From an uncultured Pseudomonadales bacterium (GTDB lineage Bacteria; Patescibacteriota; Microgenomatia; UBA1400; UBA12108): DNA of 26,943 nt. The stretch is from the NCBI GenBank assembly GCA_964491465.1, contig CAZBFT010000002.1, positions 1 through 26,943 of the forward strand. Reading direction: 5' to 3'. A program made the position numbers and the translations under genes. This document shows positions 2,225 to 26,943 of this stretch, one piece after another (position 1 is the first letter of the stretch; each line of letters begins with the position of its first letter). Under the pieces are notes generated by a model. The model saw nothing but the letters and a program-made list of their open reading frames with translations. It did not search any database and had not been told where the DNA came from.

Positions 2225-3139
2225 TCAGAAAGAGAAGCGTTCGAGGAATTTTCTGAATGGTGACGACTCGGTCGAAGTGGTCACGGTAACGCCAGTTTCG
2301 GCTGAGACTTCGGTTTGTTTTTGAAAACGAGCTCGGAAAAGTCCGAGGAAGCGCTTGGTTTCCTCGTGCTTGATTTGGTAGACAGGCTCGCCGGCCTTGT
2401 TTTCGGTTAATTGAATGTCGTCACTGTTTTCGACTTCAGCGACGTCATCGAGTAGACCTTTTTCAATCATCTTTTCAACTGCTTGGTCGGGGAGGACGGT
2501 GACGATTTTGGTGGTACCATCTGGGCGGGTCACGACCAGCTCATTGTTATTATTAACTGTGAGTGGCAGCTCGGTTTTGGCCTTCAATTTTTCGCGCCTG
2601 ATTTCGAGCTCACCGTTTTTCACGGCGTTGATTTCGAGTCTTTCCCCGTCTGATTGGTCCACGTGGAGGGATTCTTTGGGTTCTAGTTCGACTTCTGTTT
2701 CTTGATGAGTACCATTGCGGAGCTCAATTTTTTGTTTGATTTTGAGTTTGTCCCCATCAGTTTCCAGTTCAAATTCATTCTTGCTGGGAGATTTTCTTTT
2801 GTTGGCTTCGATTTGACGCTCTAATTTTTGTTTGGCTGCCTCGCGGATTTTTTCGGCATTGCGTTTTTCCATTTCGCGATTGGTCTCAGCGACGCTATTT
2901 TCGGTTCGCTGGATGTTGCCAGGATTTGTGCCACGAGGGATGGCCTGGTTGGGGACTTCGCGAATATCTTCGGCGTCCTCGTTTTCGACCTCGACTTGGT
3001 CGTCGTCGCCCAAAACGGAACCATCAACTTTGATCAAGTATCCGGAGCCGTCGATCAAATAGTCGGCACGGGCGGTGCCGGTAGCGACAAAAGCGAAAAC
3101 TAGTAGCGTGAGTGAGCTGACAACGAGTGATTTGGACAT
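2225..3139 (-). CDS. Exported hypothetical protein (304 aa)
   Basis: Signal peptide ending ATGTARA, charged helical middle, beta-rich C-terminus; AGGAGG SD. Confidence 0.8.
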   Translation of the reverse strand: MSKSLVVSSLTLLVFAFVATGTARADYLIDGSGYLIKVDGSVLGDDDQVEVENEDAEDIREVPNQAIPRGTNPGNIQRTENSVAETNREMEKRNAEKIREAAKQKLERQIEANKRKSPSKNEFELETDGDKLKIKQKIELRNGTHQETEVELEPKESLHVDQSDGERLEINAVKNGELEIRREKLKAKTELPLTVNNNNELVVTRPDGTTKIVTVLPDQAVEKMIEKGLLDDVAEVENSDDIQLTENKAGEPVYQIKHEETKRFLGLFRARFQKQTEVSAETGVTVTTSTESSPFRKFLERFSF

Positions 3140-3180
3140 AAGTCCTCCTAATTTAGTAACTAGTATAGTAGTAGCACAAA

Positions 3181-4233
3181 TTAAAAAAGATTGAAAGTCT
3201 TGTTTTGCTCATTTTTGTTCCCCCGGGCGTCGAGGACACGAGCCGCAAATGAGTGAGCGGATCCGGAAGTCCCCTGGAAACAGTAGCTAGCGTCGACCAT
3301 ACTGGACCAGGTACCGCCGTCGACTTTTTGTTCGAGTTTGAGCTCGGAAGCTGTAGACACGTTGTCGGTGGGAGCGGAGGGGATGAGGAAGCAAGTACCA
3401 TTTTCACCCCAGTCGTAGGGGCCGGAAAGAGTAAAATTGGGAGCAATATTGTCGGTCAAATTTTCGTAGTCGACGCGGGCGAAGTTGTTGCTGTGGTTGG
3501 ATTCCTTCAGCGACTTGTCGCCATTGACGGTGAGCTTGAGGCTGTGACGACCGAGATCGATCGTGGCGTCGTGGCAGTAATCGTAAAGTCTGCCCGACTC
3601 AAGGCGATCATATTGACTCAGGGTCCCGGAGTCGATTTCTTTGTCATCGAGGGTCAAACTATATTTGACCAACTTGCCATCGGAGACGTTTTCGTTGGCC
3701 ACGAGATGAAAACAAACAGTGACCCGTGGAGACCAGGCCTGCTTGACTTCGTCAAATTGCCCAATTTGGACACTGGTGTATTCACGATTGATCTCGCGGC
3801 CATTGCCGCTACCGTCGTCGATTGTTTGGCGGATGTTGCCAGCCGGGTTGCCAAAGCGGAGGTCAAAAGTAGGGGGCTGATAAGGCGTCGGTGTGGGAGA
3901 GGGGGAAGCGTGGGGAGAAGGGATGGTTGTTGGCTTGACAGTAGGCTTGGCGGAAGCTTTGGGAGAAGAACTCGCCTCGGGGGAAGGAGAGGTTTCGGGT
4001 TCGGGACTAGGTTCGACAGTAGGAGAGGGGGTGGGCAGGGGAGCGGGAGAAGAGGAAATTTCTTGCTTGAGCTTGCTCATGTAGTAGGCACCCCCCAGGG
4101 CGGCGGCCAGGACAAAGACGACAACAACGCCAAGAAGCAGGGGTCCGATGGGATTGTGATGGCGAGTTTTCAGCGGGAGAATGGGAGTGGTGGGAATAAT
4201 ATCGGGAGGAACGGTAGCGGCAGGATCGGTCAT
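3181..4233 (-). CDS. Membrane-anchored surface protein: TM, Pro/Ser/Thr linker, CARDB-like and Ig-like domains (350 aa)
   Basis: TM LLLGVVVVFVLAAALGGAYYM; SPSP/TPTP linker; CARDB-type motif LTVNGDKSLKESNHSNN; C-terminal beta-sandwich with DARGN. Confidence 0.75.
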   Translation of the reverse strand: MTDPAATVPPDIIPTTPILPLKTRHHNPIGPLLLGVVVVFVLAAALGGAYYMSKLKQEISSSPAPLPTPSPTVEPSPEPETSPSPEASSSPKASAKPTVKPTTIPSPHASPSPTPTPYQPPTFDLRFGNPAGNIRQTIDDGSGNGREINREYTSVQIGQFDEVKQAWSPRVTVCFHLVANENVSDGKLVKYSLTLDDKEIDSGTLSQYDRLESGRLYDYCHDATIDLGRHSLKLTVNGDKSLKESNHSNNFARVDYENLTDNIAPNFTLSGPYDWGENGTCFLIPSAPTDNVSTASELKLEQKVDGGTWSSMVDASYCFQGTSGSAHSFAARVLDARGNKNEQNKTFNLF

Positions 4234-4240
4234 CTTCTAA

Positions 4241-5119
4241 CTATAATTCTTTTGATAGCTCTTGCACAAGCTCTTTGGCACGACGGCCCAGTTTTTCCGG
4301 CAACATGACCTTGAGTTTGATGTAAAAGTCCCCGCGGCCAGAACCCTGCAAGTGTTTAATCCCGCGGCCGGCCAGGCGGACGGTCGTGCTCGGTTGGGTG
4401 CCGGGACGGATTTTGATCTTGAGATCGCCGTCGAGCGTGGGGATTGTGGTGTCTCCCCCCAAAATGGCCAGGGTGAAAGGAATTTCGTGTAGGATAAAAA
4501 CGTCGGCGCCTTCGCGGCGGAAAGTTTTATCAGCCCTGACATTGACGCTCAGGTCAAATTCGCGATAGCGGATCCGGGTACCGTCGTCGGCGCCGGGCGG
4601 GATTTTAACCGTGAATTGTTTGCCTTGGTGGACAAAGGTTTTCTCCACGCCATGCACGGCGTCCATAAAGTCGATTGTCAGCGAATAGTGCGGTTTGGTT
4701 TGAAACTGACTGCCAAAGGGATTTTGGCCGCCAAAAAAAGATTCAAAAATGTTAAAGGGATCGGAAAATCCCTGGCCTTGGTTGCCAAATAAATCTTCGA
4801 ATCCTCCACCGGTCGTGTAGGTATAACTGAAAGGACCAGAGCGGTATGACTGACTACCCTGCCCGCCGCCAAACCCGCCAAAGCCGGAGCTGGGGTCAAA
4901 AGCGGCGTGACCAAACTGGTCGTACTTGGCTTTTTTCTCAGAATTGCTTAGGACTTCGTAGGCTTCGTTGACTTCTTTAAACTTGGCTTCGGCGCCAGAT
5001 TCTTTGTTGCGGTCGGGATGCCACTTGAGGGCTAGTTTGCGGTAGGCACTTTTGAGTTCGCTGTCCGTGGCGCTACGACTCACGCCTAAGATTTCGTAGT
5101 AATCCTTTTTCGTAGTCAT
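4241..5119 (-). CDS. dnaJ: Class B (CbpA-like) DnaJ chaperone without zinc finger (292 aa)
   Basis: J-domain DYYEILGV...KWHPDRN, G/F-rich region, C-terminal domain VKIPPG...IPTLDG...GRGD; no CxxCxGxG repeats. Confidence 0.92.
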
Positions 5120-5141
5120 GGGAGTGATTATAAAGCGCGGC

Positions 5142-5168
5142 TAAGCAGTAAACAAGGGTGAGTGCTAA
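5142..5168 (-). promoter_or_regulatory. Degenerate CIRCE (HrcA operator) over the dnaJ promoter
   Basis: Minus strand TTAGCACTC-N9-TACTGCTTA (9/9 and 6/9 vs TTAGCACTC-N9-GAGTGCTAA), overlapping -35 TTGTTT (5150-5155); -10 TATAAT at 5127-5132, 17-nt spacer. Confidence 0.7.
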
Positions 5169-5563
5169 AAGCGAGGATTACGGTTGGCATTTTCCAACCA
5201 TTGGCTATAGAAACCTATAACAAGCTTGTGATAATACTGCAATTGGGTTGACAGACGATGTTTGTCTTCTTTAAGTTCCCGCTCATAGTATTCGATGGCC
5301 CTTCGGGCATATACATCTGCAGGGGTTGTTTGATCAAGTCTATATTTTATTTCTTGTTCAAAATGTTCTGCAAATGCGGCCTTATTGCGCATAAACCTCT
5401 CATAGACGGCCGCGTCACTAAATACCACTTCATCGCTAGCCATAGGAGAAATGGTGGCACCGGCTACGAGGAAATAGACACTACACGGACCATCAAATAA
5501 CTGCTGCTGGCCTAGGTCAACTTCGCTTTGTGATAAATCATTTTCATGATTGGCTGCAAGCAT
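5165..5563 (-). CDS. Hypothetical protein (132 aa), AT-rich
   Basis: Fills the dnaJ-upp gap on the same strand; TAGAAT 8 nt before ATG; no recognised motif. Confidence 0.6.
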   Translation of the reverse strand: MLAANHENDLSQSEVDLGQQQLFDGPCSVYFLVAGATISPMASDEVVFSDAAVYERFMRNKAAFAEHFEQEIKYRLDQTTPADVYARRAIEYYERELKEDKHRLSTQLQYYHKLVIGFYSQWLENANRNPRF

Positions 5564-5650
5564 AAAAATATATTCTAACTGTATGAGTAATGATATAGGG
5601 CAGACTCTAGCACTCGCTAGGAGCAGAAACTACAGACAATAGCGGGCAGG

Positions 5651-6352
5651 CTAGACTGTGCCAAATTGGCGGTCGCCGGCGTCGCCGAGACCGGGCACGA
5701 TGTAGGCTTGCTGGTTGAGATGGTCGTCGACGGCGGCCACAGTGACCTGCACATCGGGATACTTTTTGTTGAGTGCACGGATACCTTCGGGGGCGGCGAG
5801 CATACTAATCATTTTGACAGTACCTTGGGGATAAATGGATTTGATCCGTTGCACCGTTTCGATCGCGCTGCCGCCAGTCGCCAACATGGGATCGAGAATC
5901 AAGAAAACTGCGTGTGCGCCGTGGTTGAGATAGGCAAGGTCTTTGAGATCGTAGTACCAGTGGGCAATCGCGGTTGCTTCGTCACGTGCCATCCCGGCGA
6001 AAATGGTGGTGGCCGCGGGGAAAATGGCTTGGGCTGGAGCCAACATCCCAACGCCAGAGCGAAGTACGGGGATCAAGACTATTTGATCTCGGAGACGGCG
6101 AGCATGGACGGGAGCGAGTGGGGTGGCAATTTTTACTTTCGTTTCGGCCAAATCGGCAGTGGCTGCATAGATAAGCGGCGGGGCGAGCCGATAGACCGCA
6201 GCGCGAAAGTTTTCGAGATTGGTTTTGTGATCGCGCATGACCCGCAGGCAGTCGCGAACCAAGGGATGATCAACAATCGTGACGTGGAGAGACGCATCGG
6301 CTTGGGCACTGACTAATAATTGTTGTTCGTCATATTCCAAATCTTGTGTCAT
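5651..6352 (-). CDS. upp: Uracil phosphoribosyltransferase (233 aa from ATG 6352)
   Basis: PVLRSGVGM, PRPP-binding LILDPMLATGGSA, YIVPGLGDAGDRQFGT; TACAAT 8 nt before ATG 6352. Confidence 0.95.
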   Translation of the reverse strand: MTQDLEYDEQQLLVSAQADASLHVTIVDHPLVRDCLRVMRDHKTNLENFRAAVYRLAPPLIYAATADLAETKVKIATPLAPVHARRLRDQIVLIPVLRSGVGMLAPAQAIFPAATTIFAGMARDEATAIAHWYYDLKDLAYLNHGAHAVFLILDPMLATGGSAIETVQRIKSIYPQGTVKMISMLAAPEGIRALNKKYPDVQVTVAAVDDHLNQQAYIVPGLGDAGDRQFGTV

Positions 6353-6447
6353 GTATGTGTATTGTAGTGGATTTACGGTAAGTTCATAGTAAGAGTGCTG
6401 CTTGTTGGCTGTTGTTTTACTGAATATATTGGACAATTATTAGATTA

Positions 6448-6696
6448 ATGCCAGGACATAATAACGAACAGGATAGTGCTACTCAGCCAGTACATGTGAC
6501 GGCAGCTGGTGTCGTCAGAAACGACAATGTCGGGCGGCCGTTAATTCGACCTCGCCCAATTGATCCTTTGATGGGGAAAAATACGCTTGATGGAAATGAT
6601 CCGCGATCATTGCCATTAACGGATGAGGCCTCTAGGTTATTAAGCGCAGAAGCACGGGAATTGACTAGATTGTACGTTCTGAGTTTGTACCCGTAA
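6448..6696 (+). CDS. Possible small hypothetical protein (82 aa)
   Basis: Only ORF filling the gap; ends 1 nt from the convergent hydrolase stop; no motif or clear initiation signal. Confidence 0.4.
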   Translation: MPGHNNEQDSATQPVHVTAAGVVRNDNVGRPLIRPRPIDPLMGKNTLDGNDPRSLPLTDEASRLLSAEARELTRLYVLSLYP

Positions 6697-6697
6697 T

Positions 6698-7261
6698 CTA
6701 GATGAATTGAAGTAATTCGGAGAGTTTGGAACTACCTTCTTCCGCGGACATATGGCCGCGGTTGTGGATGGTGATTATCTGAGGATTTAATTGGGTGCGG
6801 AAAAATCGGGAGTTTTCGGCATATGGCACCCAGGGATCATTGTCGGAAAAGATGGTAAGGAACTGCGAAGAGCGAGGTTTGATCTTGCCCCAGTCGAGAG
6901 GAGTTTTGAGCCAGGGATCTGCAACGGCCCACATCTCGTCACTTTCCAAATTCGCCAGAGTGACCCAGGGCGCGACCAAAATAACCTTATCGGCTCTTCC
7001 CTCCCCTCCCCTCTCCAGATAGCGGAGGATGGTTTGGCAGCCTATACTATGGCCGACAAAAATGTCGGTTGAGCGTAATTGACCCACCAGTTGAGCAAGG
7101 AGGGGTACCCACTCCCCTATCACTGGAGCGTCGGTATCGGGCATTTGCGGAGCGACGACTTGGTATCCTCTACTCTCTAGCTCGGCCGTTGCCCACGGGA
7201 ACCAATCGGCTTGTGGTCCCCCACCCCAGCCGTGAATAAGAAAAATGCGTGGTTTGGACAT
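6698..7261 (-). CDS. RBBP9/YdeN-family alpha/beta serine hydrolase (187 aa)
   Basis: FLIHGWGG...WFPW, nucleophile elbow GHSIG, SDNDPWVP, RGHM. Confidence 0.9.
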   Translation of the reverse strand: MSKPRIFLIHGWGGGPQADWFPWATAELESRGYQVVAPQMPDTDAPVIGEWVPLLAQLVGQLRSTDIFVGHSIGCQTILRYLERGGEGRADKVILVAPWVTLANLESDEMWAVADPWLKTPLDWGKIKPRSSQFLTIFSDNDPWVPYAENSRFFRTQLNPQIITIHNRGHMSAEEGSSKLSELLQFI

Positions 7262-18455: not shown

Positions 18456-19040
18456 ATGCAGCTGCCCGCTTTCTTTGGTCACAAAAAATCGATTAACTTG
18501 CTTCCCCGTGATGAGTTTGAGTCGAGTGCGATGGGAGTGGTGCTAGAGTGGGCACTGGCTTTTGGGAAGTGGGCGGTCATTTTGACACAATTGATAGTGA
18601 TGGGAACTTTCTTGTGGAGATTTTCGCTCGACAGGCAACTGACGGATCTAAAGAAATCAATTAACAAAAATGTGGCGATTATCAAGTCGTATGAGCAAAT
18701 CGAGAAGGACTTTATTTTGACGCAGAAGCGAGTCAGTTTGGCAACAAAAATCCTGGACCAACAAAACAAAGAGTCCGAGATCTTGACCCAATTGACCCAA
18801 ATTACCCCAGCTGATGTGTGGCTAGATAAATTGAATATCACGGAGAGTACGGTTAACCTGAGCGCGTACGCAGGATCATTAAATGGATTCGGGCAGTTTT
18901 TGACGGCAGCGCAAAAAGTGCCGTTGTTTAAAAGCATCACCGTGAACAAAATTCAAGATGGCGGGACAGAAAATGCTCAAATGCAGTTTGACCTGACAAT
19001 CACATACAACACCGGTGTAAAGACGGCGGAGAAGCTATGA
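18456..19040 (+). CDS. PilN-like type IV pilus alignment protein (194 aa)
   Basis: INLLP N-terminal motif, single TM, coiled coil, ITPADVWLDKLNI..., FDLTI ferredoxin-like core; TATACT 6 nt before ATG. Confidence 0.75.
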   Translation: MQLPAFFGHKKSINLLPRDEFESSAMGVVLEWALAFGKWAVILTQLIVMGTFLWRFSLDRQLTDLKKSINKNVAIIKSYEQIEKDFILTQKRVSLATKILDQQNKESEILTQLTQITPADVWLDKLNITESTVNLSAYAGSLNGFGQFLTAAQKVPLFKSITVNKIQDGGTENAQMQFDLTITYNTGVKTAEKL

Positions 19041-19735
19041 CAACGGCCAGACCACTGCAGTATCAAGCTAGCCGAACTAAGAAATATCAGCTAGATTTGG
19101 CTAGGTATTATCGGATCCCGGCTGTGCAAACATCGCTCCCTGTAGTGCTGTCGATCATGATCGTCGCATTTTTTGTGATGTTCGCCCTGCGACCAACACT
19201 GGTTACAATCGTGAATTTACAAAAAACAATTGAAGAGTCCAAAAAGACACTGTCACAGCTGGAGGTCAAGGTGGCCGCTTTGAATCAAGTTAATGTAATT
19301 ATGGAAGGGGTAAAACCCAAACTTGGGGCACTTGATGCCAGTATCCCGATGGGGACGGCTGGGTATGACTCGCTTGAGAGTGCACTGACGATCCTGGCTG
19401 AGCAGGCCGGAGTGAAATATGATTCTTCTAATTTGGGTGGGAGTGTGTTGTTTACTAAATTATTTGCGCCTTTTACCCTGACGAAGAATTCGGGAGCGAT
19501 TCCTTTGACATTTGATGCTCGAGTGAGCGGCAACTATACTCAGATAAATCAATATTTGCAGTCTATTATGAAAATGGACCGACTGGTCGCCATCACAGGC
19601 TTGAATTTTGGGCGGGATAATAAAAGTGAAGACAGCGATAACCTTACCCTGACGATAATGGGCACTACTTACTACATGGCCGATGAGGCACAGCTAGCCA
19701 AAGCCATACCGAACATTATCAAAGGAATCAAATAG
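19037..19735 (+). CDS. PilO-like type IV pilus alignment protein (232 aa)
   Basis: TM, coiled coil, VSGNYTQINQYLQSIMKMDRLVAI PilO-type motif; ATGA overlap with the pilN-like gene. Confidence 0.7.
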   Translation: MTTARPLQYQASRTKKYQLDLARYYRIPAVQTSLPVVLSIMIVAFFVMFALRPTLVTIVNLQKTIEESKKTLSQLEVKVAALNQVNVIMEGVKPKLGALDASIPMGTAGYDSLESALTILAEQAGVKYDSSNLGGSVLFTKLFAPFTLTKNSGAIPLTFDARVSGNYTQINQYLQSIMKMDRLVAITGLNFGRDNKSEDSDNLTLTIMGTTYYMADEAQLAKAIPNIIKGIK

Positions 19736-20065: not shown

Positions 20066-21412
20066 ATGAATCTTCTGGCCCGGAAATTTCCTACAATTTT
20101 GGGCATTTTGATGTTGGCCGGAGCTGTAGCCTACGGGGTTTGGTGGATTAGCCAAAATAAGCCCAAGGTTGACGCTACGCTTATGCCGAGCAAAGTGAGA
20201 ATTACCAACGTGGCGGATAGCAAGTTTAGCGTGTCATGGATTACGACACAGAGCACACAAGGCAAAATTGAGTACGGGAAAATTGGGGAAAAGATTACCG
20301 AGCAGGCAGCGGATGAACGGGGAGAGGTGAGTTCCAAGACACACCAAGTGACCGTAGAAGGGTTACAGCCTAACACTCAATATTCGTTCCGAATTGTGTC
20401 GGGATCCGGTCAAGCTCGCTTTGACAACAATGGTTCGCCTTACGCTGTCCAGACTGGTCCGGTAATCGGAGAGACACCGCCGGCCAAGAGCTTTTATGGA
20501 ACGATTAGGCCAGGTACAGGAGCGAGTGCTGAAGGCGCGATTGTGTATTTATCCCTCCCTGGGTCAGCGCCGGTCTCAACTTTGGTCAAAGCTGGCGGCA
20601 GTTATACTTTGTCGTTGTCGACGATCCGAGCAACTGATCTCAAAAGCTATGCGACGTATGATCCGTCGGCGACAATAGCCACGGTGACGGTCGAAGGCGC
20701 GGGGGAAGAATCGACAGTGACAGTCTCGACCGCCAATTCGGCACCGGTCCCCTTAATTACACTGGGACAAAATGCCGACTACCGCACAGCCGAAGTGGCT
20801 CCACAAATCGCCGAGTTGGATAACCCGGTTTCTTCCCCAACCCCGACTGCCAGCGCCGTGACGCCGGCAATTTTTAACGTAGAGCCATTGGCGGGTAGCG
20901 TGAACGAAATACAGGATTCCAGTTTGAAAATTATTAATCCTAGTGTAGAGGGCGAAGTACTGTCGACCCTGCGACCAGAATTTAGGGGCACAGGTCCGGC
21001 TAATATCACTTTAACCATCGCAGTTAGCGGGCAAAAGGCAGTAAGTGACACGGTGTTGACTGACCTGGACGGGACGTGGAGCTGGGCACCGGTGGTGGAC
21101 TTGAAAGCCGGTAAACAAACCCTAATTGTGTCGTACAAAGACAGTAGTAACAAAGAACAAAAAGTAAGCCGCGTGTTTAATATAAATACTACTGTGGTAA
21201 CCCCGGCGTTTGAGTCGACCCCTTCGGCGAGCGTAAAAACCAGTGCTGCGCCAATAGCGAGTAAAACCCCTACTCCCACACCTTCTCCGAGAGATACGTT
21301 ACCGGCGACTGATAGCGGGGTGCCTGTCACTGGGGTAATCACTCCGACTCTATTGACGGCAGGCGCATCTATTGTCATGATGGTGATAGGAGCGTTCTTA
21401 TTAGCGCTTTAG
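20066..21412 (+). CDS. Surface protein with FN3 (purple acid phosphatase N-terminal-like) and Ig-like domains, N- and C-terminal TMs (448 aa)
   Basis: ITNVADSKFSVSW...THQVTVEGLQPNTQYSFRI; Big-like GTWSW...DLKAGKQTL; PST linker; VPVTG + C-terminal hydrophobic helix. Confidence 0.8.
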   Translation: MNLLARKFPTILGILMLAGAVAYGVWWISQNKPKVDATLMPSKVRITNVADSKFSVSWITTQSTQGKIEYGKIGEKITEQAADERGEVSSKTHQVTVEGLQPNTQYSFRIVSGSGQARFDNNGSPYAVQTGPVIGETPPAKSFYGTIRPGTGASAEGAIVYLSLPGSAPVSTLVKAGGSYTLSLSTIRATDLKSYATYDPSATIATVTVEGAGEESTVTVSTANSAPVPLITLGQNADYRTAEVAPQIAELDNPVSSPTPTASAVTPAIFNVEPLAGSVNEIQDSSLKIINPSVEGEVLSTLRPEFRGTGPANITLTIAVSGQKAVSDTVLTDLDGTWSWAPVVDLKAGKQTLIVSYKDSSNKEQKVSRVFNINTTVVTPAFESTPSASVKTSAAPIASKTPTPTPSPRDTLPATDSGVPVTGVITPTLLTAGASIVMMVIGAFLLAL

Positions 21413-21419
21413 GATTGTT

Positions 21420-22946
21420 ATGCCTGACACACAATTACCAGATCCCCAGGCAGCTGTGAATGCCGCTTTGGGTAACCCGCCGGCAACTACTCCTATGGAG
21501 CCGGTGCAACCAATGACAACGCCTGCACCAATGCCTCCGACCGAGACCGTCCCAACGGAGTTGGTGAACCCAGCTGACCCCACTAAGCCCGTGGAAGCTT
21601 TGGTGGCGTCTGCTCCGGAACCAGTCACTTTACCCCAACCAGAACCACTGCCCATGCCACAGCCGGCCCCATCTACGGGTGTCCCGATGGGAGACGATAC
21701 ACCGCTCGCGTTTGCAGCAGCTCAGGCTATGGCCGCCCCATCGAGTCCTGCCCCAACCCCAGTTACAGAGGGCACTAGCAGCTATCTCCCCCCCACTCCG
21801 CCCATTCCTCCCGCTCCCGCCGTCCCACCCGAACCAAAGAAGAAAAAGGGAGGGAAGGGGAAGGTAGTGGGAGTATTGGCTGGAGTATTGTTGCTTGTAG
21901 TGGGGGTAGTGGGTGGACTCTGGGGATATGAAAGGCTATCGGGCAAACCTGGGTTAATTGCTGCGATCACCATGCCTTGCGGTGAGGCAGATGCTGGACA
22001 GTGTGTACCAAAAAGTTGGACGTGTAAAAGTTCTGGAAAGGGGACATGCTCCGGAGGAGGGAAATGTGGAATCAATTGTTCAGAACCAGGTGGGGGCGGT
22101 GGGGGTGGAGGAGACCCTGAAATTTGTACTCCAGGAGCTCAAAATAACTGTACACCGATTGATGGGTGTCCTGCCAAGTCTACGTGTAATTCGAGTGGAA
22201 CGGCATGGCAACCTTGTGCCAAGGTTGATCCAAATTGCAAACCATGTGCAAGTGTAATATGTGATCAAGGTGCTACTTGCAAGAATGGCCTGTGTGAATT
22301 CCCTTGTGCTGCAGGTTATGAGTTGGACGCTAGTGGGCAGTGCGTATTATTGAATGCAGGAGGACCTGTAAGTTGTGGCAGTATTAAGACTGCGGCTCAA
22401 TGTACTGCCGCTGGGGGTGAACCAGTGACAGAACCTGGTACGGGTAGTAAGTGTGATGCCAATGGACATTGGTGTAGTGTTATACGCGATGAGTGTAAAA
22501 TTAATGGTAAGTGGTGTTTAATGGGTACGAGTGATAAGTGCTCTGGTGGCGTTGACGAAAGATGTGTTCCGGCAACTCCTACTCCCACTCCCAAGCCGTC
22601 ACCAATTCCCTCTCCCACCCCCTCCCCTTCTCCCTCTCCCTCGCCTTCACCGGTGATGGCCTGTACAGGATTGACTAAGGCGCCAACTACGGCTCCAAAG
22701 ATTGGGGACAAAATAACGTTTACGTGTACAGGGACTTCTACCTATACTGGAGGAGCGGCGGCACTCAAATACAAATACCGCTATAACATAAATGATGGTG
22801 CCTGGACAAACTTGACTACCAAGACTAATGGAAAGTCGGAACTGACAATAGCCGCTTGCGGATCTTACGAAGTACAGTGCCGAGCTTGCGTGACCAGTGG
22901 AGCCACCGAGATTTGTGATCCTACATGGACAGGAGCAACACAATGA
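21420..22946 (+). CDS. Type II membrane protein: Pro-rich N-terminus, TM, Cys-rich ectodomain, SP linker, beta-sandwich (508 aa)
   Basis: KKKKGGKGK then TM; 26 Cys in 196 codons; (SP)n linker. Confidence 0.8.
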   Translation: MPDTQLPDPQAAVNAALGNPPATTPMEPVQPMTTPAPMPPTETVPTELVNPADPTKPVEALVASAPEPVTLPQPEPLPMPQPAPSTGVPMGDDTPLAFAAAQAMAAPSSPAPTPVTEGTSSYLPPTPPIPPAPAVPPEPKKKKGGKGKVVGVLAGVLLLVVGVVGGLWGYERLSGKPGLIAAITMPCGEADAGQCVPKSWTCKSSGKGTCSGGGKCGINCSEPGGGGGGGGDPEICTPGAQNNCTPIDGCPAKSTCNSSGTAWQPCAKVDPNCKPCASVICDQGATCKNGLCEFPCAAGYELDASGQCVLLNAGGPVSCGSIKTAAQCTAAGGEPVTEPGTGSKCDANGHWCSVIRDECKINGKWCLMGTSDKCSGGVDERCVPATPTPTPKPSPIPSPTPSPSPSPSPSPVMACTGLTKAPTTAPKIGDKITFTCTGTSTYTGGAAALKYKYRYNINDGAWTNLTTKTNGKSELTIAACGSYEVQCRACVTSGATEICDPTWTGATQ

Positions 22947-23875
22947 AACCAAGCATGAAGAAATCACTATTAATTGGACTCGGAATATTTGGGGTGATTG
23001 TGGTTTCCGTGGCTTTGGTTTATTACCTACGCAAGCCGACAGTGACTAGACCCACCCCGACCCCTACTCCGACTGTGGCAGTGACCCCCACGACCGCGCC
23101 GATCTTTGAAGTGAATCCGGCGGAGGCGGTGTGTTCAACTAAGTTTGTGGTCGCTTGTGCTTCGCCTTCACCTTCGATTTCACCATCCCCATCGCCTTCT
23201 CGTTCACCTTCACCCACTCCTTCTCGTTCACCTTCACCCACTCCTTCACCTTCACCTTCTATATTGCCCTCGCCTATACCTAGCCCATCGGTGATTCCGT
23301 CGGTTTCACCTTCCCCTGCACTATCAGCCAACTTGGACTGTGTGGCTAAAGAGGTATACGCGGATGATTCGAGGAATCGTGCCGGATTCTACTATTTGGA
23401 GTCGCGGATTACTGATGCTTCTAGTTTACAGACCGGGACAACCGTGACCTACAACATTATTGCTAAGAACAATGGGGGGGTCGCGGCGCCGGACGTGAAG
23501 ATCACTGATGTACTATCTACCAATCTAACCTTCGTCGATGCCGACAGTGACTGTAGCTACGACTCGGCGACCCGAACCTTGACATGCACAATGGGAACGC
23601 TAAATGCAGGAGCACAAACCCAACGCAGTTTCCGCGCTACTCTGAATACTTCGTCAACTGCTTCGGTGGCGAACACGGCCGAAGTCTTTTCGAGTAACGG
23701 CCAACGTGATAGCTGCGCCGTCAACCTAACAGCCACTGGGATAGTGGTGGTGACCCAACCATCTGAGGCACCCACGGCGCTGCCAGAGGCTGGGGTGTTT
23801 GAGATCACGGCTGGGACGATGGGGGTCGGGTTAGTACTACTGATACTCGGGGCGTTGGGACTGCTACTTATTTAA
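22943..23875 (+). CDS. DUF11 (conserved repeat domain) surface protein with SP linker and LPEAG C-terminal anchor (310 aa from ATG 22943)
   Basis: VTYNIIAKNNG...VKITDVLSTNLTFV...TLNAG DUF11 pattern; ATGA overlap with upstream stop. Confidence 0.8.
   Translation: MKPSMKKSLLIGLGIFGVIVVSVALVYYLRKPTVTRPTPTPTPTVAVTPTTAPIFEVNPAEAVCSTKFVVACASPSPSISPSPSPSRSPSPTPSRSPSPTPSPSPSILPSPIPSPSVIPSVSPSPALSANLDCVAKEVYADDSRNRAGFYYLESRITDASSLQTGTTVTYNIIAKNNGGVAAPDVKITDVLSTNLTFVDADSDCSYDSATRTLTCTMGTLNAGAQTQRSFRATLNTSSTASVANTAEVFSSNGQRDSCAVNLTATGIVVVTQPSEAPTALPEAGVFEITAGTMGVGLVLLILGALGLLLI
23195..23247 (+). repeat. Exact 24-nt tandem duplication in the SP linker
   Basis: CCTTCTCGTTCACCTTCACCCACT x2 plus 5 nt, encoding PSRSPSPT. 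Confidence 0.9.
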
Positions 23876-23999: not shown

Positions 24000-26390
24000 T
24001 TATTTCCAGCTGGGGAAGAGACCAAAGATCGTGTTGCGGTAAACTTCTGGAGTAGGAAGGCCATAGAGAAGGGGTGCAATGAGAATCAAAGAACTAGAAA
24101 TTAGAATTAAACAGAGGACGCGGTATTTGTAGGGCAGTTCGAATAACCAGGCGGCGAGAATGACACAAAGAAAAGTAGCAGAGGGCAAGTAGTGGTAAAA
24201 GAACATGATGCGAGGAGAGAAGACCCAGGGGAGAGTAAAAATAGAATATAAGAGATAGGAGATGGTATATGGGAAGCGCAGAATCCTGGGGAGCAGCATA
24301 ATCGCGGCGATTAATCCTAGCCAAAGCAAAACGGGGTTGCCTTGGGCATAAATATTGCTCACGAGGCTACCGGCATAATCGACCCAGTACCAAACTGGGC
24401 GGGCAGAGACAACCCACTGCAGCGGGGTGGATTGGTATCCATGAGTGGCTACTAGATGGGTATGGTAGTACCACATTTGACGGCGTAGCTCCCACCACTG
24501 ATCCCAGGTGTGACCAGCAAGGATAAAGGGAGTGAATGTCAATACATAAACGGCTAGAGTAACTAACAACATCCGGATGGCAAAAACGAGGTGTCGAATG
24601 CTTGATTTTAGATTCCAGGATAAAGGATTATTGGAGTGAAGATAAATAAAGGTGAGAGGGACGATGCCATAAAGGGCGCTCCATTTACACCCCAAAGCGA
24701 GGCCGTAGAGGACAGCACTCCATTTCCAGCGTGATTTGACGGCGGCATACAGCGACCAAACAAAAAAACATAGCATATAAATGTCGTTCATGGCGATACG
24801 AGATTGGGAGATGTGCAGACCTTCGAGGCTGGCGAGCAAAGATGCAAGTAGGGCAAGCTTTTTTTGCTGGAAAACAGCGAGGGTGAACATGTAAATTCCC
24901 AGGATACTGATGATCCCCAAGGCGGCGCTGCCCACACGGTAGCCAAATTCATCTTCCCCAAACAGGAGCATCCCCAAGACCATACCGTATTTGGCGACAG
25001 GCGGGTGGGTCCATTCATAGGCGACCCCTTCGGGCGGAGTAGTCCACCACTCCCACGCTTCGATGCGATTGTGCAGGTATTCTTTGGCGGTAAAGGCGTG
25101 ATAAACTTCGTCAAAAATATAGGCGCGGGGATGGGAGAGGTTGGTCAATCGTAGCAGTGAAGCAATGAGCAAAATGCCAACGAGAAGTTTGTTGGATTTG
25201 AGAAGAGAGAAGAGAGAAGAGAGAGATTTTTGCCAGTCCCAGATAAAGGCGAGACTGATGGCGGTCAGAACAATGGCCCAGGAACTGAGTGAGGTCACCC
25301 ACAAAGGAAGTGGCCAAACTTGCGCGTGGTTGACCCAATAAAAGGCGCTATACAAATTGAGGGAAAAGGTACAAGTTAAAAGAAACAAGGGGAGCCAAAG
25401 AAACGATTGGGCCGGCACTGCAAGTGTCAGGAAAGGCAGACCAAATAAGAGATGGCGTTCGTGCATGCGAGTGGTAAAGGCATAAAACAAAATGAGAATG
25501 GTGGCGGCCAATCGAGGAGCAAATTGCGGAGCAAACTTAAGTTTGCGCCAGTGATTAAAGATAATTAGGGTAAATAAAGTAAAAAGAGTAAGGCCGAGTG
25601 CGCGGGCGGAGATACCCAAAACACTACCGGAATCGGGAATCCAAGCAAGGTTGGGGACCAGCGACCACAGGTTCCAGGCGTTGATGGTCATAAAGGGGTA
25701 AGTGCCGGCCTGATCCATAATGCGGCTGTAAAGGTGAGGCAGAAAGCTCCAGCCACCGGTCGGGATGCCGGTTGCAAAAAAAGTGGCAGCAGAAAACAAG
25801 GGGAATTGCCAGAAGTATTTCTTTTGGATGGCTACGATCCAGAGAACGGGAGCAACTAAAATGAGGATGGGTTTGTAGGCGACGGCTAGTCCAAATAGAG
25901 CTGCGGAGAAGTATTTGGCGCTTAGTATTTTGTATTTAGTATTAGGCTTATTGAGCAGTAAAGATAACGATAAAAGGGCGAGAAGAGAGGGAATGCTGTC
26001 TACCTGGCCCCAAAATGAGGTGTCGCCGATTAGAGCGGGAGACAAAAGAAGAAGAAGTTTGGGTAAGAGAGGTAAATTGGGTAAGAGAAGAATCAGGATG
26101 ACTTCGATAGCTGAGTGGAAAAGCTTGAAGATAAAACTAAAGTCCCAATGGAAAACTTGGGAGAGGTAGGCGGGGATGCCAAAACTGAGAATTGGCAGGG
26201 GGAGATAGTCCGACCAGATGTTGTCAAAGAAATGCCGGGCGCCGACGCTTAACAAATGATTGCCCCAAGCGTTGTAGGTCCCCATGTCGTAAGGCTGAGC
26301 GGTGGTAGTGCTGCCATAGAGCCGGATGCCAACGGCGAGGAAAAGAGCTAACCAAGGCAGATATTTACTTGACCAGATTTTCGGCCACAT
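24000..26390 (-). CDS. Fused double GT-C glycosyltransferase: N-terminal GT-C domain + protein O-mannosyltransferase (PMT/GT39)-like domain (796 aa from ATG 26390)
   Basis: C-half: IFDEVYH, THPPVAK, SRIAMNDI, CKWS, HGYQSTPLQW, GNPVLLW, FFYHYLP. N-half: YDMGTY, DYLP, WGQVD, NAWNLW, RMHERH. Confidence 0.85.
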   Translation of the reverse strand: MWPKIWSSKYLPWLALFLAVGIRLYGSTTTAQPYDMGTYNAWGNHLLSVGARHFFDNIWSDYLPLPILSFGIPAYLSQVFHWDFSFIFKLFHSAIEVILILLLPNLPLLPKLLLLLSPALIGDTSFWGQVDSIPSLLALLSLSLLLNKPNTKYKILSAKYFSAALFGLAVAYKPILILVAPVLWIVAIQKKYFWQFPLFSAATFFATGIPTGGWSFLPHLYSRIMDQAGTYPFMTINAWNLWSLVPNLAWIPDSGSVLGISARALGLTLFTLFTLIIFNHWRKLKFAPQFAPRLAATILILFYAFTTRMHERHLLFGLPFLTLAVPAQSFLWLPLFLLTCTFSLNLYSAFYWVNHAQVWPLPLWVTSLSSWAIVLTAISLAFIWDWQKSLSSLFSLLKSNKLLVGILLIASLLRLTNLSHPRAYIFDEVYHAFTAKEYLHNRIEAWEWWTTPPEGVAYEWTHPPVAKYGMVLGMLLFGEDEFGYRVGSAALGIISILGIYMFTLAVFQQKKLALLASLLASLEGLHISQSRIAMNDIYMLCFFVWSLYAAVKSRWKWSAVLYGLALGCKWSALYGIVPLTFIYLHSNNPLSWNLKSSIRHLVFAIRMLLVTLAVYVLTFTPFILAGHTWDQWWELRRQMWYYHTHLVATHGYQSTPLQWVVSARPVWYWVDYAGSLVSNIYAQGNPVLLWLGLIAAIMLLPRILRFPYTISYLLYSIFTLPWVFSPRIMFFYHYLPSATFLCVILAAWLFELPYKYRVLCLILISSSLILIAPLLYGLPTPEVYRNTIFGLFPSWK
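25911..25945 (-). repeat. In-frame degenerate heptamer repeat in the glycosyltransferase
   Basis: Plus strand GTATTTG, GTATTTT, GTATTTA, GTATTAG in 7-nt register at 25911, 25925, 25932, 25939; encodes PNTKYKILSAKY. Confidence 0.7.
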
Positions 26391-26943
26391 AAGCGTGAAT
26401 ATTGTCCCAAGATTCCGAGGGTACCAACACCCATTGATCATCGTAGACCCTGGAGTTTTTGGGATTAATAAATAATTGTTCGAGTCCGACACTGTGGATA
26501 TCATCCGTGCGGTTCATACCCAACAAAACTTTGAGAAAACTCCCCGACTCCGACTCGCTCACGTCGGTATCAATTGAAGATGCGACGGTAGATTTGAGGT
26601 TGGTGAGGGTGGTGGCGTTGAACAATGTACTACTACTAAAGATCTTTTCGCGAAAAGCCAGAATAATTTTTTCTTGCCTTTTACTTCTAGCAAAGTCGGT
26701 GCCTTCGTCCCCTATCGCATGTCGCGAGCGGGCAAATTTGAGGGCGGTCGCGCCGTCCATGTGAGTAGGCCCGGCGTCAAAATGGATATGTTCGTAGCGG
26801 TCACTTTCTGGGAGCGCGGTTTCACGGCCCGGAATGGGATATTTGTAGTCGTCAAAAGTACGGTCAACTACCAGGTCCAATCCGCCGACTGCGTCGATCG
26901 CCTGCACAAAACCCGAGAAATCGAGTACGACGGCATAGTGAAT
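26365..26943 (-). CDS. LytR-CpsA-Psr (LCP) family protein, 5' end outside the window
   Basis: Frame is open to the window edge: IHYAVVLDFSGFVQAIDAVGG, MDGATALKFARSRH, DFARSKRQEKII. Confidence 0.9.
   Translation of the reverse strand: MHYAVVLDFSGFVQAIDAVGGLDLVVDRTFDDYKYPIPGRETALPESDRYEHIHFDAGPTHMDGATALKFARSRHAIGDEGTDFARSKRQEKIILAFREKIFSSSTLFNATTLTNLKSTVASSIDTDVSESESGSFLKVLLGMNRTDDIHSVGLEQLFINPKNSRVYDDQWVLVPSESWDNIHAYVAENLVK

Follow-up and report, generated by a model that had tools for sequence, protein, structure and literature searches.

What a membrane protein might do with two different glycosyltransferases of the GT-C fold in one chain is the question raised by a gene in the window analysed here, a stretch of 26,943 nucleotides (contig C2:1-26943) from a genome bin of 859 kb in 129 contigs that is 86% complete. 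The host is a tiny groundwater-type bacterium of the candidate phyla radiation (CPR; Microgenomates, Patescibacteria) with a genome of ~0.86 Mb. On the minus strand, at 24000..26390, a single gene joins a lipid-sugar transferase module of the PimE/ALG6 type to a protein O-mannosyltransferase (PMT) module. In the reading that we prefer, and whose chances we put at about even, the product is a glycosylation enzyme of the cytoplasmic membrane with two outward-facing active sites, in which the PMT module would start a glycan and the N-terminal module (N-module) is favoured to extend it.

Two GT-C modules in one reading frame

The open frame extends over 24000..26504 on the minus strand and encodes 834 amino acids from its first, in-frame ATG at 26504. 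A start there would add 38 residues that are absent in homologues, and both the homologue alignment and a database copy of the protein, P0034 (796 amino acids), place the start at M39, nucleotide 26390, where the initial annotation had also put it. The gene then consists of 796 codons and a stop at 24000-24002, and we number its residues after P0034. An AlphaFold2 (AF2) model of the full-length protein has a predicted local distance difference test score (pLDDT) of 93.4 and a predicted template modelling score (pTM) of 0.91. Along the minus strand, the N-module (residues 1-385, 25236..26390) is followed by a K/R-rich amphipathic linker helix predicted to be cytoplasmic (residues 386-399, 25194..25235) and by the C-terminal module (C-module; residues 400-796, 24003..25193).

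From its domains and predicted fold, the C-module is a GT39 protein O-mannosyltransferase-like enzyme. It matches the Pfam families PMT (PF02366, 1.5e-14), PMT_2 (1e-13) and PMT_4TMC (PF16192, 1e-12), with PMT at 54.6 bits against a cut-off of 22.7 and PMT_4TMC at 48.3 against 32.4, both above the gathering scores. PMT_4TMC is matched by all 62 family members, and the C-module is its sole match in the genome. Foldseek with the full-length AF2 model retrieved Pmt4 (9i5k_A; E 7e-13, target-normalised TM-score 0.68) and Pmt1-Pmt2 (1e-7), and a phmmer alignment to Pmt4 of C. thermophilum covered the PMT_4TMC loop and the DE motif (FDEVH in that protein). The DE motif, at 25107-25112 within FDEVYH (25098-25115, minus), precedes the first horizontal helix and lies in what is predicted to be the first extracytoplasmic loop. 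Like other bacterial PMTs, the module is without a MIR domain.

The N-module was harder to place by sequence. Its comparison with the sequences in the PDB gave chance matches only (CAD protein at E 2.2), and P0021, a distant relative bearing a GT87 domain, found no match there. The GT87 family (PF09594) is matched by 17 of 62 close homologues, at best with 4.4e-9, the window protein itself being without a match at E <=10. Among distant stand-alone relatives there are proteins with GT87/DUF2029 (in several), Alg6_Alg8 or PIG-U domains and others annotated as Gpi18-like mannosyltransferase; Alg6_Alg8 (PF03155) matches one of them, P0016, and not the window protein, and a profile of N-only sequences matches GPI mannosyltransferase 1 (E 1e-8).

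Structure prediction gave a clearer family for this half. Modelled alone, it reaches pLDDT 96.2 and pTM 0.94. The top three Foldseek matches were PimE (TM-scores 0.60/0.62), ALG6 and ALG3, and an independent VIA search returned ALG6 with Z 27.3 (359 residues, root-mean-square deviation 3.6 A), ALG3 with 25.6, GPI-MT-I with 23.8, PimE (9dm5) with 20.5 (336 residues), PIG-U with 19.9, ArnT with 18.7 and Pmt with 17.8, unrelated helical proteins scoring ~7. The first 19 VIA matches and the first 28 Foldseek matches all belong to the GT-C superfamily, and on these fold matches we take the N-half for a complete second GT-C module. The first outer loop of ALG6/8 has D...W followed by DYPP, which we take to resemble YDxGTxxAW ... 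SDYLP of the N-module. From the DSSP helices, the alternating K/R-rich loops and the alignment-averaged K+R counts, the N-module is predicted to have 12 transmembrane helices, both ends inside and an outer loop 1 of residues 29-83. The conserved polar motifs of both modules would then lie on the outer face and the linker helix inside, the first transmembrane helix of the PMT module being at 401-415.

The motifs quoted in the initial annotation (FDEVYH, HPP, KWS, YQSTPLQW, YHYLP, PYDMGTY, DYLP, WGQVD and HERH) are all found in the translation, and their invariance across 109 full-length homologues indicates that those of neither half are a matter of chance. In the C-module, D427-E428, H462-P463 (of HPP), K569-W570, R727 and Y732-H-Y734 are invariant or nearly so. 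Invariant in the N-module are D35, D61-Y62-x-P64, K89, W127-G-Q-x-D131, K173-P174, N240 and R308-M-H-E-R-H313, D35 being an aspartate in 108 of the 109 rows and the remaining row being truncated. Most of these N-module residues are also kept in stand-alone relatives at 21-27% identity. We also scanned one genome per prokaryote species with the pattern RMHER and counted residues and neighbours at 59 fused and 11 N-only loci: D35 and WGQVD are kept in 59/59 fused proteins, K173 in 58/59 and the DE motif wherever it aligned, D61 is conserved as well, and D35 is an aspartate in 11/11 stand-alone relatives. The conservation of RMHER itself in this set is a consequence of the selection by that pattern. 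The initial annotation's acidic first-loop residue in the N-half is this D35, and its two separate GT-C modules in a single chain are borne out, with the GT39 assignment of the C-half upheld by Pfam, DE motif and Pmt folds and the N-half recognised by predicted fold. The domain search of each half that it proposed returned PMT and PMT_4TMC for the C-half and no Pfam match for the N-half.

Among the matches, PimE offers the most detailed comparison of active-site residues. This GT87 enzyme has 12 transmembrane helices with cytoplasmic termini; the first juxtamembrane helix carries the catalytic D58 at its tip, and the donor phosphate is bound by K195 and by W319, H321 and H322 of the loop between transmembrane helices 9 and 10 (PMC12041525). 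In the AF2 models, D35 begins a helix at 33-49 that follows the first transmembrane helix (11-28), a position at the first juxtamembrane helix that matches those described for D58 of PimE and D74 of MtPMT (PMC12041525, PMC12331936). The D35 codon (26286..26288, minus, in PYDMGTY at 26274-26294) thus encodes a candidate catalytic base at the start of outer loop 1's juxtamembrane helix. WGQVD (residues 127-131, 25998..26012, minus) lies on the predicted outer face and RMHERH (residues 308-313, 25452..25469, minus) in the loop after the ninth transmembrane helix. By position in sequence and model, we infer that D35, D61, WGQVD, K173 and H310/H313 correspond to D58, D160/Q163, K195 and H321/H322 of PimE. 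With these residues, the N-module looks catalytically competent.

Distribution of the fusion

Searched with the N-half, 21 of the 23 genomes in the host's GTDB family yielded a close fused frame; elsewhere in the order, families contain stand-alone forms alongside fused frames of 26-33% identity. The same query matched 5 of 301 genomes in an even sample of the phylum. A word-indexed database search returned 229 proteins, and more than 100 of the best 120 are ~780-810 amino acids long and cover 93-95% of the query. The species scan gave at least 550 related loci, and in 64 of the best 80 both modules lie in one frame of 790-1218 amino acids. The phyla of the scan include Patescibacteria, Chloroflexota/Dehalococcoidia, Bacillota, Cyanobacteria/Sericytochromatia and Eremiobacterota, with Lachnospiraceae fusions that include cultured [Clostridium] polysaccharolyticum. 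The superfamily of the N-module comprises 14,859 clusters at 50% identity, and a second, stand-alone paralogue is present in the genome itself (C23:6064-6885, a 407-amino-acid frame with 30% identity to the N-half). The fusion is conserved across phyla and under selection.

The bin is fragmented into its 129 contigs and some database entries are N-only or C-only, as might be expected if two adjacent genes had been joined by an assembly or frameshift error. Against such an artefact, the same unbroken frame recurs in more than 100 independent clusters, in nearly all genomes of the family and in most of the best scan loci, which include closed chromosomes and the cultured Clostridium; we regard this explanation as wholly improbable. 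The C-only entries of 486 amino acids, considered as the product of split genes, all start within the N-module, at the RMHERH methionine, and are therefore most likely truncated or broken gene calls. P0011 diverges at that Met as a frameshift would make it, and P0007 (385 amino acids), on a 2.5-kb contig, stops at the module border.

Other tandem GT-C chains occur in the same superfamily (P0166, P0168, P0162), made of two GT87/ALG6-like modules or combining an N-module and a PMT with an F5/8 type C domain. The fused gene's Patescibacteria-type locus is present in many records under the titles "uncultured Gammaproteobacteria" or "uncultured Pseudomonadales", in one case on a chromosome of 810 kb; these records share 50-55% identity and synteny with Microgenomates, and their taxon labels look wrong.

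Proposed function of the paired modules

Under the preferred reading, the C-module would take a hexose, most likely mannose, from polyprenyl-phosphate-hexose and put it on Ser/Thr of proteins emerging from the membrane, most likely on the (S/T)P-rich linkers of neighbouring surface proteins. The N-module, tethered by the cytoplasmic linker helix, would pack on the PMT like the second protomer of eukaryotic PMT dimers or like Rv0051 in the mycobacterial Pmt complex, and the pTM of the full-length model indicates a confident relative placement of the two. As its own active-site-like residues are invariant, it probably also transfers sugar, most likely as a second transferase with a polyprenyl-phosphate donor. 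We favour a reaction that lengthens the O-glycan beyond its first sugar, so that the N-half may elongate what the C-half starts, by analogy with PimE, which can add to the first O-mannose in M. tuberculosis (PMC12331936). The translationally coupled LytR-CpsA-Psr (LCP) enzyme encoded upstream would point to a glycoconjugate pathway of the cell envelope as the setting of the pair. It is by inference from these comparisons that we name the sugar and the acceptors and divide the work between the two modules.

Gene neighbourhoods point to the candidate acceptors. A protein with three consecutive (S/T)-P repeats is encoded immediately downstream, always convergent, at 23 of the 59 fused loci and at none of the 11 N-only loci, which strengthens the link that the initial annotation had drawn to proteins with SP/TP linkers. 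Linker open reading frames make up 31/320 at the fused loci, compared with 16/953 in the genome and 0/66 at the N-only loci. An LCP gene lies upstream on the same strand at 28 of the 59. The loci with linker proteins are all from Patescibacteria except one (Dehalococcoidia), and those with LCP all from Patescibacteria.

Several observations weigh against the preferred reading. The N-half has no Pfam match of its own even at E 10, and D35 is a candidate catalytic residue by position and conservation. The C-module scores 42 bits with the NCBIfam equivalog of actinobacterial Pmt (NF058602; cut-off 800), and it is consequently a distant GT39 member and not an orthologue of that enzyme. The mycobacterial partner Rv0051 is reported without catalytic residues, so that a partner role needs no activity. 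A flippase of the GtrA type (PF04138) had no match in the 86%-complete genome. Among the fusions of the species scan, those of Bacillota and Cyanobacteria have neither the linker-protein nor the LCP association. The convergence with the surface-protein operon is one of neighbourhood, not co-transcription, and the neighbourhood counts are descriptive because related genomes are not independent samples.

The main rival to the idea that one module initiates and the other elongates is that the N-module is chiefly a built-in partner of the PMT, non-catalytic or lipid-binding, which helps to recruit the acceptor peptide or the lipid donor while only the C-module transfers; the chain would then amount to a Pmt1-Pmt2 or Pmt-Rv0051 dimer within one molecule. 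Mycobacterial Pmt co-purifies with the GT87-like MSMEG_6899/Rv0051, and the preprint reporting this takes GT87-GT39 fusions as support for obligatory dimerisation (bioRxiv 10.64898/2026.07.15.738315). PIG-U, which has a GT-C fold and no transferase activity, is also a strong structural match, and the high pTM of the full-length model fits a fixed pseudo-dimer. Unlike Rv0051 as described, however, the N-module has retained WGQVD, K173, RMHERH and an invariant Asp where GT-C enzymes have their catalytic residue, and this conservation, across phyla and in stand-alone relatives, is that expected of purifying selection on an active site. The N-module also occurs alone in thousands of clusters and hence has a function without a PMT. 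We consider a purely supporting role rather unlikely, if a serious contender.

Alternatively, the pair could decorate or build a glycopolymer, lipid-linked or bound to the wall, for ligation by the co-transcribed LCP enzyme to peptidoglycan or to a sorted surface protein. Teichoic acids and mycobacterial lipoglycans are known cases of GT-C enzymes in such a role. The LCP gene is directly upstream with a stop/start overlap in all seven family genomes, and 28 fused loci overall have it upstream. LCP enzymes transfer glycopolymers linked to polyprenyl pyrophosphate, and LcpA of A. oris glycosylates a protein anchored by sortase (PMC6381275). LPxAG or PxTDSG and a transmembrane helix form the ends of the neighbouring surface proteins, and the genome has three sortases. 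Furthermore, the N-module's relatives in GT87, GT57 and GT50, where characterised, use lipid-linked acceptors (PMC12041525), and the small genome holds many GT2/GT-C gene pairs of the teichoic-acid-glycosylation type (PMC8035078). Opposing this, PMT_4TMC, a family-specific domain, is present in the C-module, for which Pmt structures are the best matches by far, and the LCP association is missing from the fusions of other phyla, so that LCP coupling cannot be the core function of the fusion. It also counts against a glycopolymer that every characterised GT39 enzyme known to us O-mannosylates proteins. We judge this alternative unlikely.

The preferred reading can be carried further for Microgenomates/Woesebacteria, where the fused enzyme, the LCP ligase and the surface proteins linked to PilN/PilO might form one dedicated pathway, the PMT starting and the N-module extending O-glycans on the (S/T)P linkers of adhesins anchored by their C-terminus; the ancestral PMT partner would then have been a working transferase, of which Rv0051 is a degenerate remnant. 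We put this forward tentatively, as a somewhat doubtful extension that, if true, would mean a self-contained mucin-type coat for ultra-small episymbiotic cells.

To our knowledge, bacterial protein O-mannosylation has been studied almost only in Actinobacteria. In the literature on GT39/GT87 fusions and on glycosylation in Patescibacteria, we found a single direct precedent, a preprint of July 2026 in which a complex of mycobacterial Pmt and the GT87-like Rv0051/MSMEG_6899 is predicted, supported by pull-down and likened to Pmt1-Pmt2, and in which Paenibacillus GT39 enzymes are described as translationally fused to a GT87 enzyme (UniProt V9WAU2) (bioRxiv 10.64898/2026.07.15.738315). With this complex, these fusions and the extension of O-mannose by PimE, the architecture was already known in outline; it is widespread in public data, has been noticed before and is no new class. 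As in mycobacterial Pmt (Rv1002c, GT39) with Rv0051 (ML2687c) and in the Paenibacillus fusions, the partner of the GT39 PMT is a GT87-like GT-C protein, and in the window gene fusion makes this pairing permanent. The window protein differs from Rv0051, described as being without catalytic residues, in its candidate Asp and other polar motifs, and from the mycobacterial complex in that the window locus showed neither a beta-propeller nor a DivIVA-like partner. It differs from both systems, the Paenibacillus fusions being known to us by the preprint's description, in its host among Patescibacteria and in its coupling to LCP.

Likenesses to better known enzymes are found for each module. PimE (PDB 9DM5/9DM7; PMC12041525) shares with the N-module the 12-helix GT-C fold with both termini inside, the Asp at the first juxtamembrane helix and, by position, a Lys and a His-containing loop where it binds the donor phosphate. 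However, the two are only 12-15% identical in structural alignment, ALG6, ALG3 and GPI-MT-I score higher for the N-module, and PimE is a stand-alone enzyme acting on the glycolipid Ac1PIM4; the window protein stays below the GT87 Pfam model. Yeast ALG6 (GT57, PDB 6SNH/6SNI), the top VIA match, is a eukaryotic glucosyltransferase of the endoplasmic reticulum whose substrate is a lipid-linked oligosaccharide. The yeast Pmt1-Pmt2 and Pmt4 dimers (PDB 6P25, 9E61, 9I5K) have the fold of the C-module, its DE motif and PMT_4TMC, and likewise two GT-C bodies as one unit; they consist of two GT39 subunits with lumenal MIR domains, whereas the second body in the window protein comes from another GT-C family and is covalently linked. 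Two further systems are functional analogies, differing in enzyme families and gene orders: streptococcal Pgf, which glycosylates disordered regions rich in Ser/Thr and in which a GT2 makes the lipid-phosphate-sugar and a GT-C enzyme modifies extracytoplasmic S/T-rich linkers (PMC12041528), and LcpA-GspA of Actinomyces oris, in which a sorted protein of the cell surface is glycosylated with the help of an LCP enzyme (PMC6381275).

That Pmt requires a GT87-like partner is a very recent proposal, made for Actinobacteria, and here the pairing is hard-wired in a minimal Patescibacteria genome. The particular value of the system lies in its small size and conserved candidate substrates: a compact set of 796 amino acids, with no propeller and no MIR domain, and with plausible substrates encoded nearby. 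Such a set could serve to tell an elongating transferase from a structural partner as the role of the second GT-C module, and it bears on how CPR bacteria build their surface.

Neighbouring genes and donor supply

The C-terminal part of the LCP gene occupies 26365..26943 on the minus strand, and the gene runs beyond the window. As the initial annotation stated, its frame ends 26 nucleotides inside the fused gene (26365 against the start at 26390), and an overlap of ~26 nucleotides is also found in seven related genomes, in which the tpiA-LCP-fusion operon with its stop/start overlap is a conserved, clade-specific feature. The LytR_cpsA_psr domain is present as two halves (profile positions 2-62 and 68-148), and the gene looks split into frames of 188 and 180 amino acids where relatives have one frame of 321-349. 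The frame differs on either side of a run of 33 N at C2:26944-26976, just past the window end; as the frame change coincides exactly with this run, we dropped the idea of an LCP pseudogene.

On the plus strand, PilN-like and PilO-like genes (18456..19735) head the surface-protein operon, in conserved synteny. They are followed by an FN3/Big_13 surface protein of 448 amino acids with a TPTPTPSP linker and a C-terminal LPATDSGVPVTG-TM signal, TM denoting a transmembrane helix (20066..21412), a Cys-rich surface protein of 508 amino acids with a Pro-rich N-terminus, a transmembrane helix, a Cys-rich ectodomain and a TPTP/SPSP linker (21420..22946), and a DUF11 surface protein of 316 amino acids with an N-terminal transmembrane helix, long TPTP/SPSP linkers and a C-terminal LPEAG-VFEIT-TM (22925..23875), which is convergent with the fused gene. 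The initial annotation had counted five linker proteins in the window, three of them in the convergent operon. Those three were recovered; the total of five was not reproduced, as both a strict rule (three consecutive S/T-P) and a looser one (S/T/P-rich) gave three in the whole window.

The gene order in seven family genomes is murJ, PilN-like, PilO-like, a small open reading frame, FN3/Big_13 (~450 amino acids), Cys-rich (~520) and DUF11 (~300). On the opposite strand, tpiA and LCP lie upstream of the fused gene, with divergent UvrD-like helicase and FemAB genes farther out. The two operons are convergent in 7/7 of these genomes, and the same convergence is seen at a fusion with 32% identity in another family. 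S/T/P linkers are also present in the orthologues of the surface proteins.

For the donor, the lipid-linked route supposed by the initial annotation appears plausible. The genome has 21 GT2 matches and eight GT-C matches of the PMT_2 type, often adjacent, and one GT2 of 218 amino acids resembles AglJ, PpgS and Dol-P-hexose transferases (1e-28, below the cut-off). A ManC-like mannose-1-phosphate guanylyltransferase is encoded together with a polyprenyl glycosylphosphotransferase in one frame of 522 amino acids (C49:3372-4937, minus), with GMP_PMI at residues 10-314 (7e-53) and EPS_sugtrans at residues 349-521 (5e-64). This frame is itself a fusion, of a nucleotide-sugar synthase to an initiating phosphoglycosyl transferase. 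At six places (contigs C63, C19, C32, C65, C122 and C4), a small GT2 gene lies beside a GT-C gene in the layout of a three-component lipid-phosphate-sugar system.

The C-terminal ends of the surface proteins are conserved between the window (21280-21412, 23740-23875) and orthologues as LPxAG-VFE(V/I)T-TM or (L/I/M)PxT(D/G/E)SGVPVTG-TM, with no basic tail after the transmembrane helix. They resemble sortase signals, if not canonical ones, and the three sortase genes of the genome lie on contigs C8, C74 and C4. In one related genome (G436:C4:22000-41900, 2232-6989), the pair of Cys-rich and DUF11 genes is tandemly duplicated, the C-termini of the DUF11 copies being identical.

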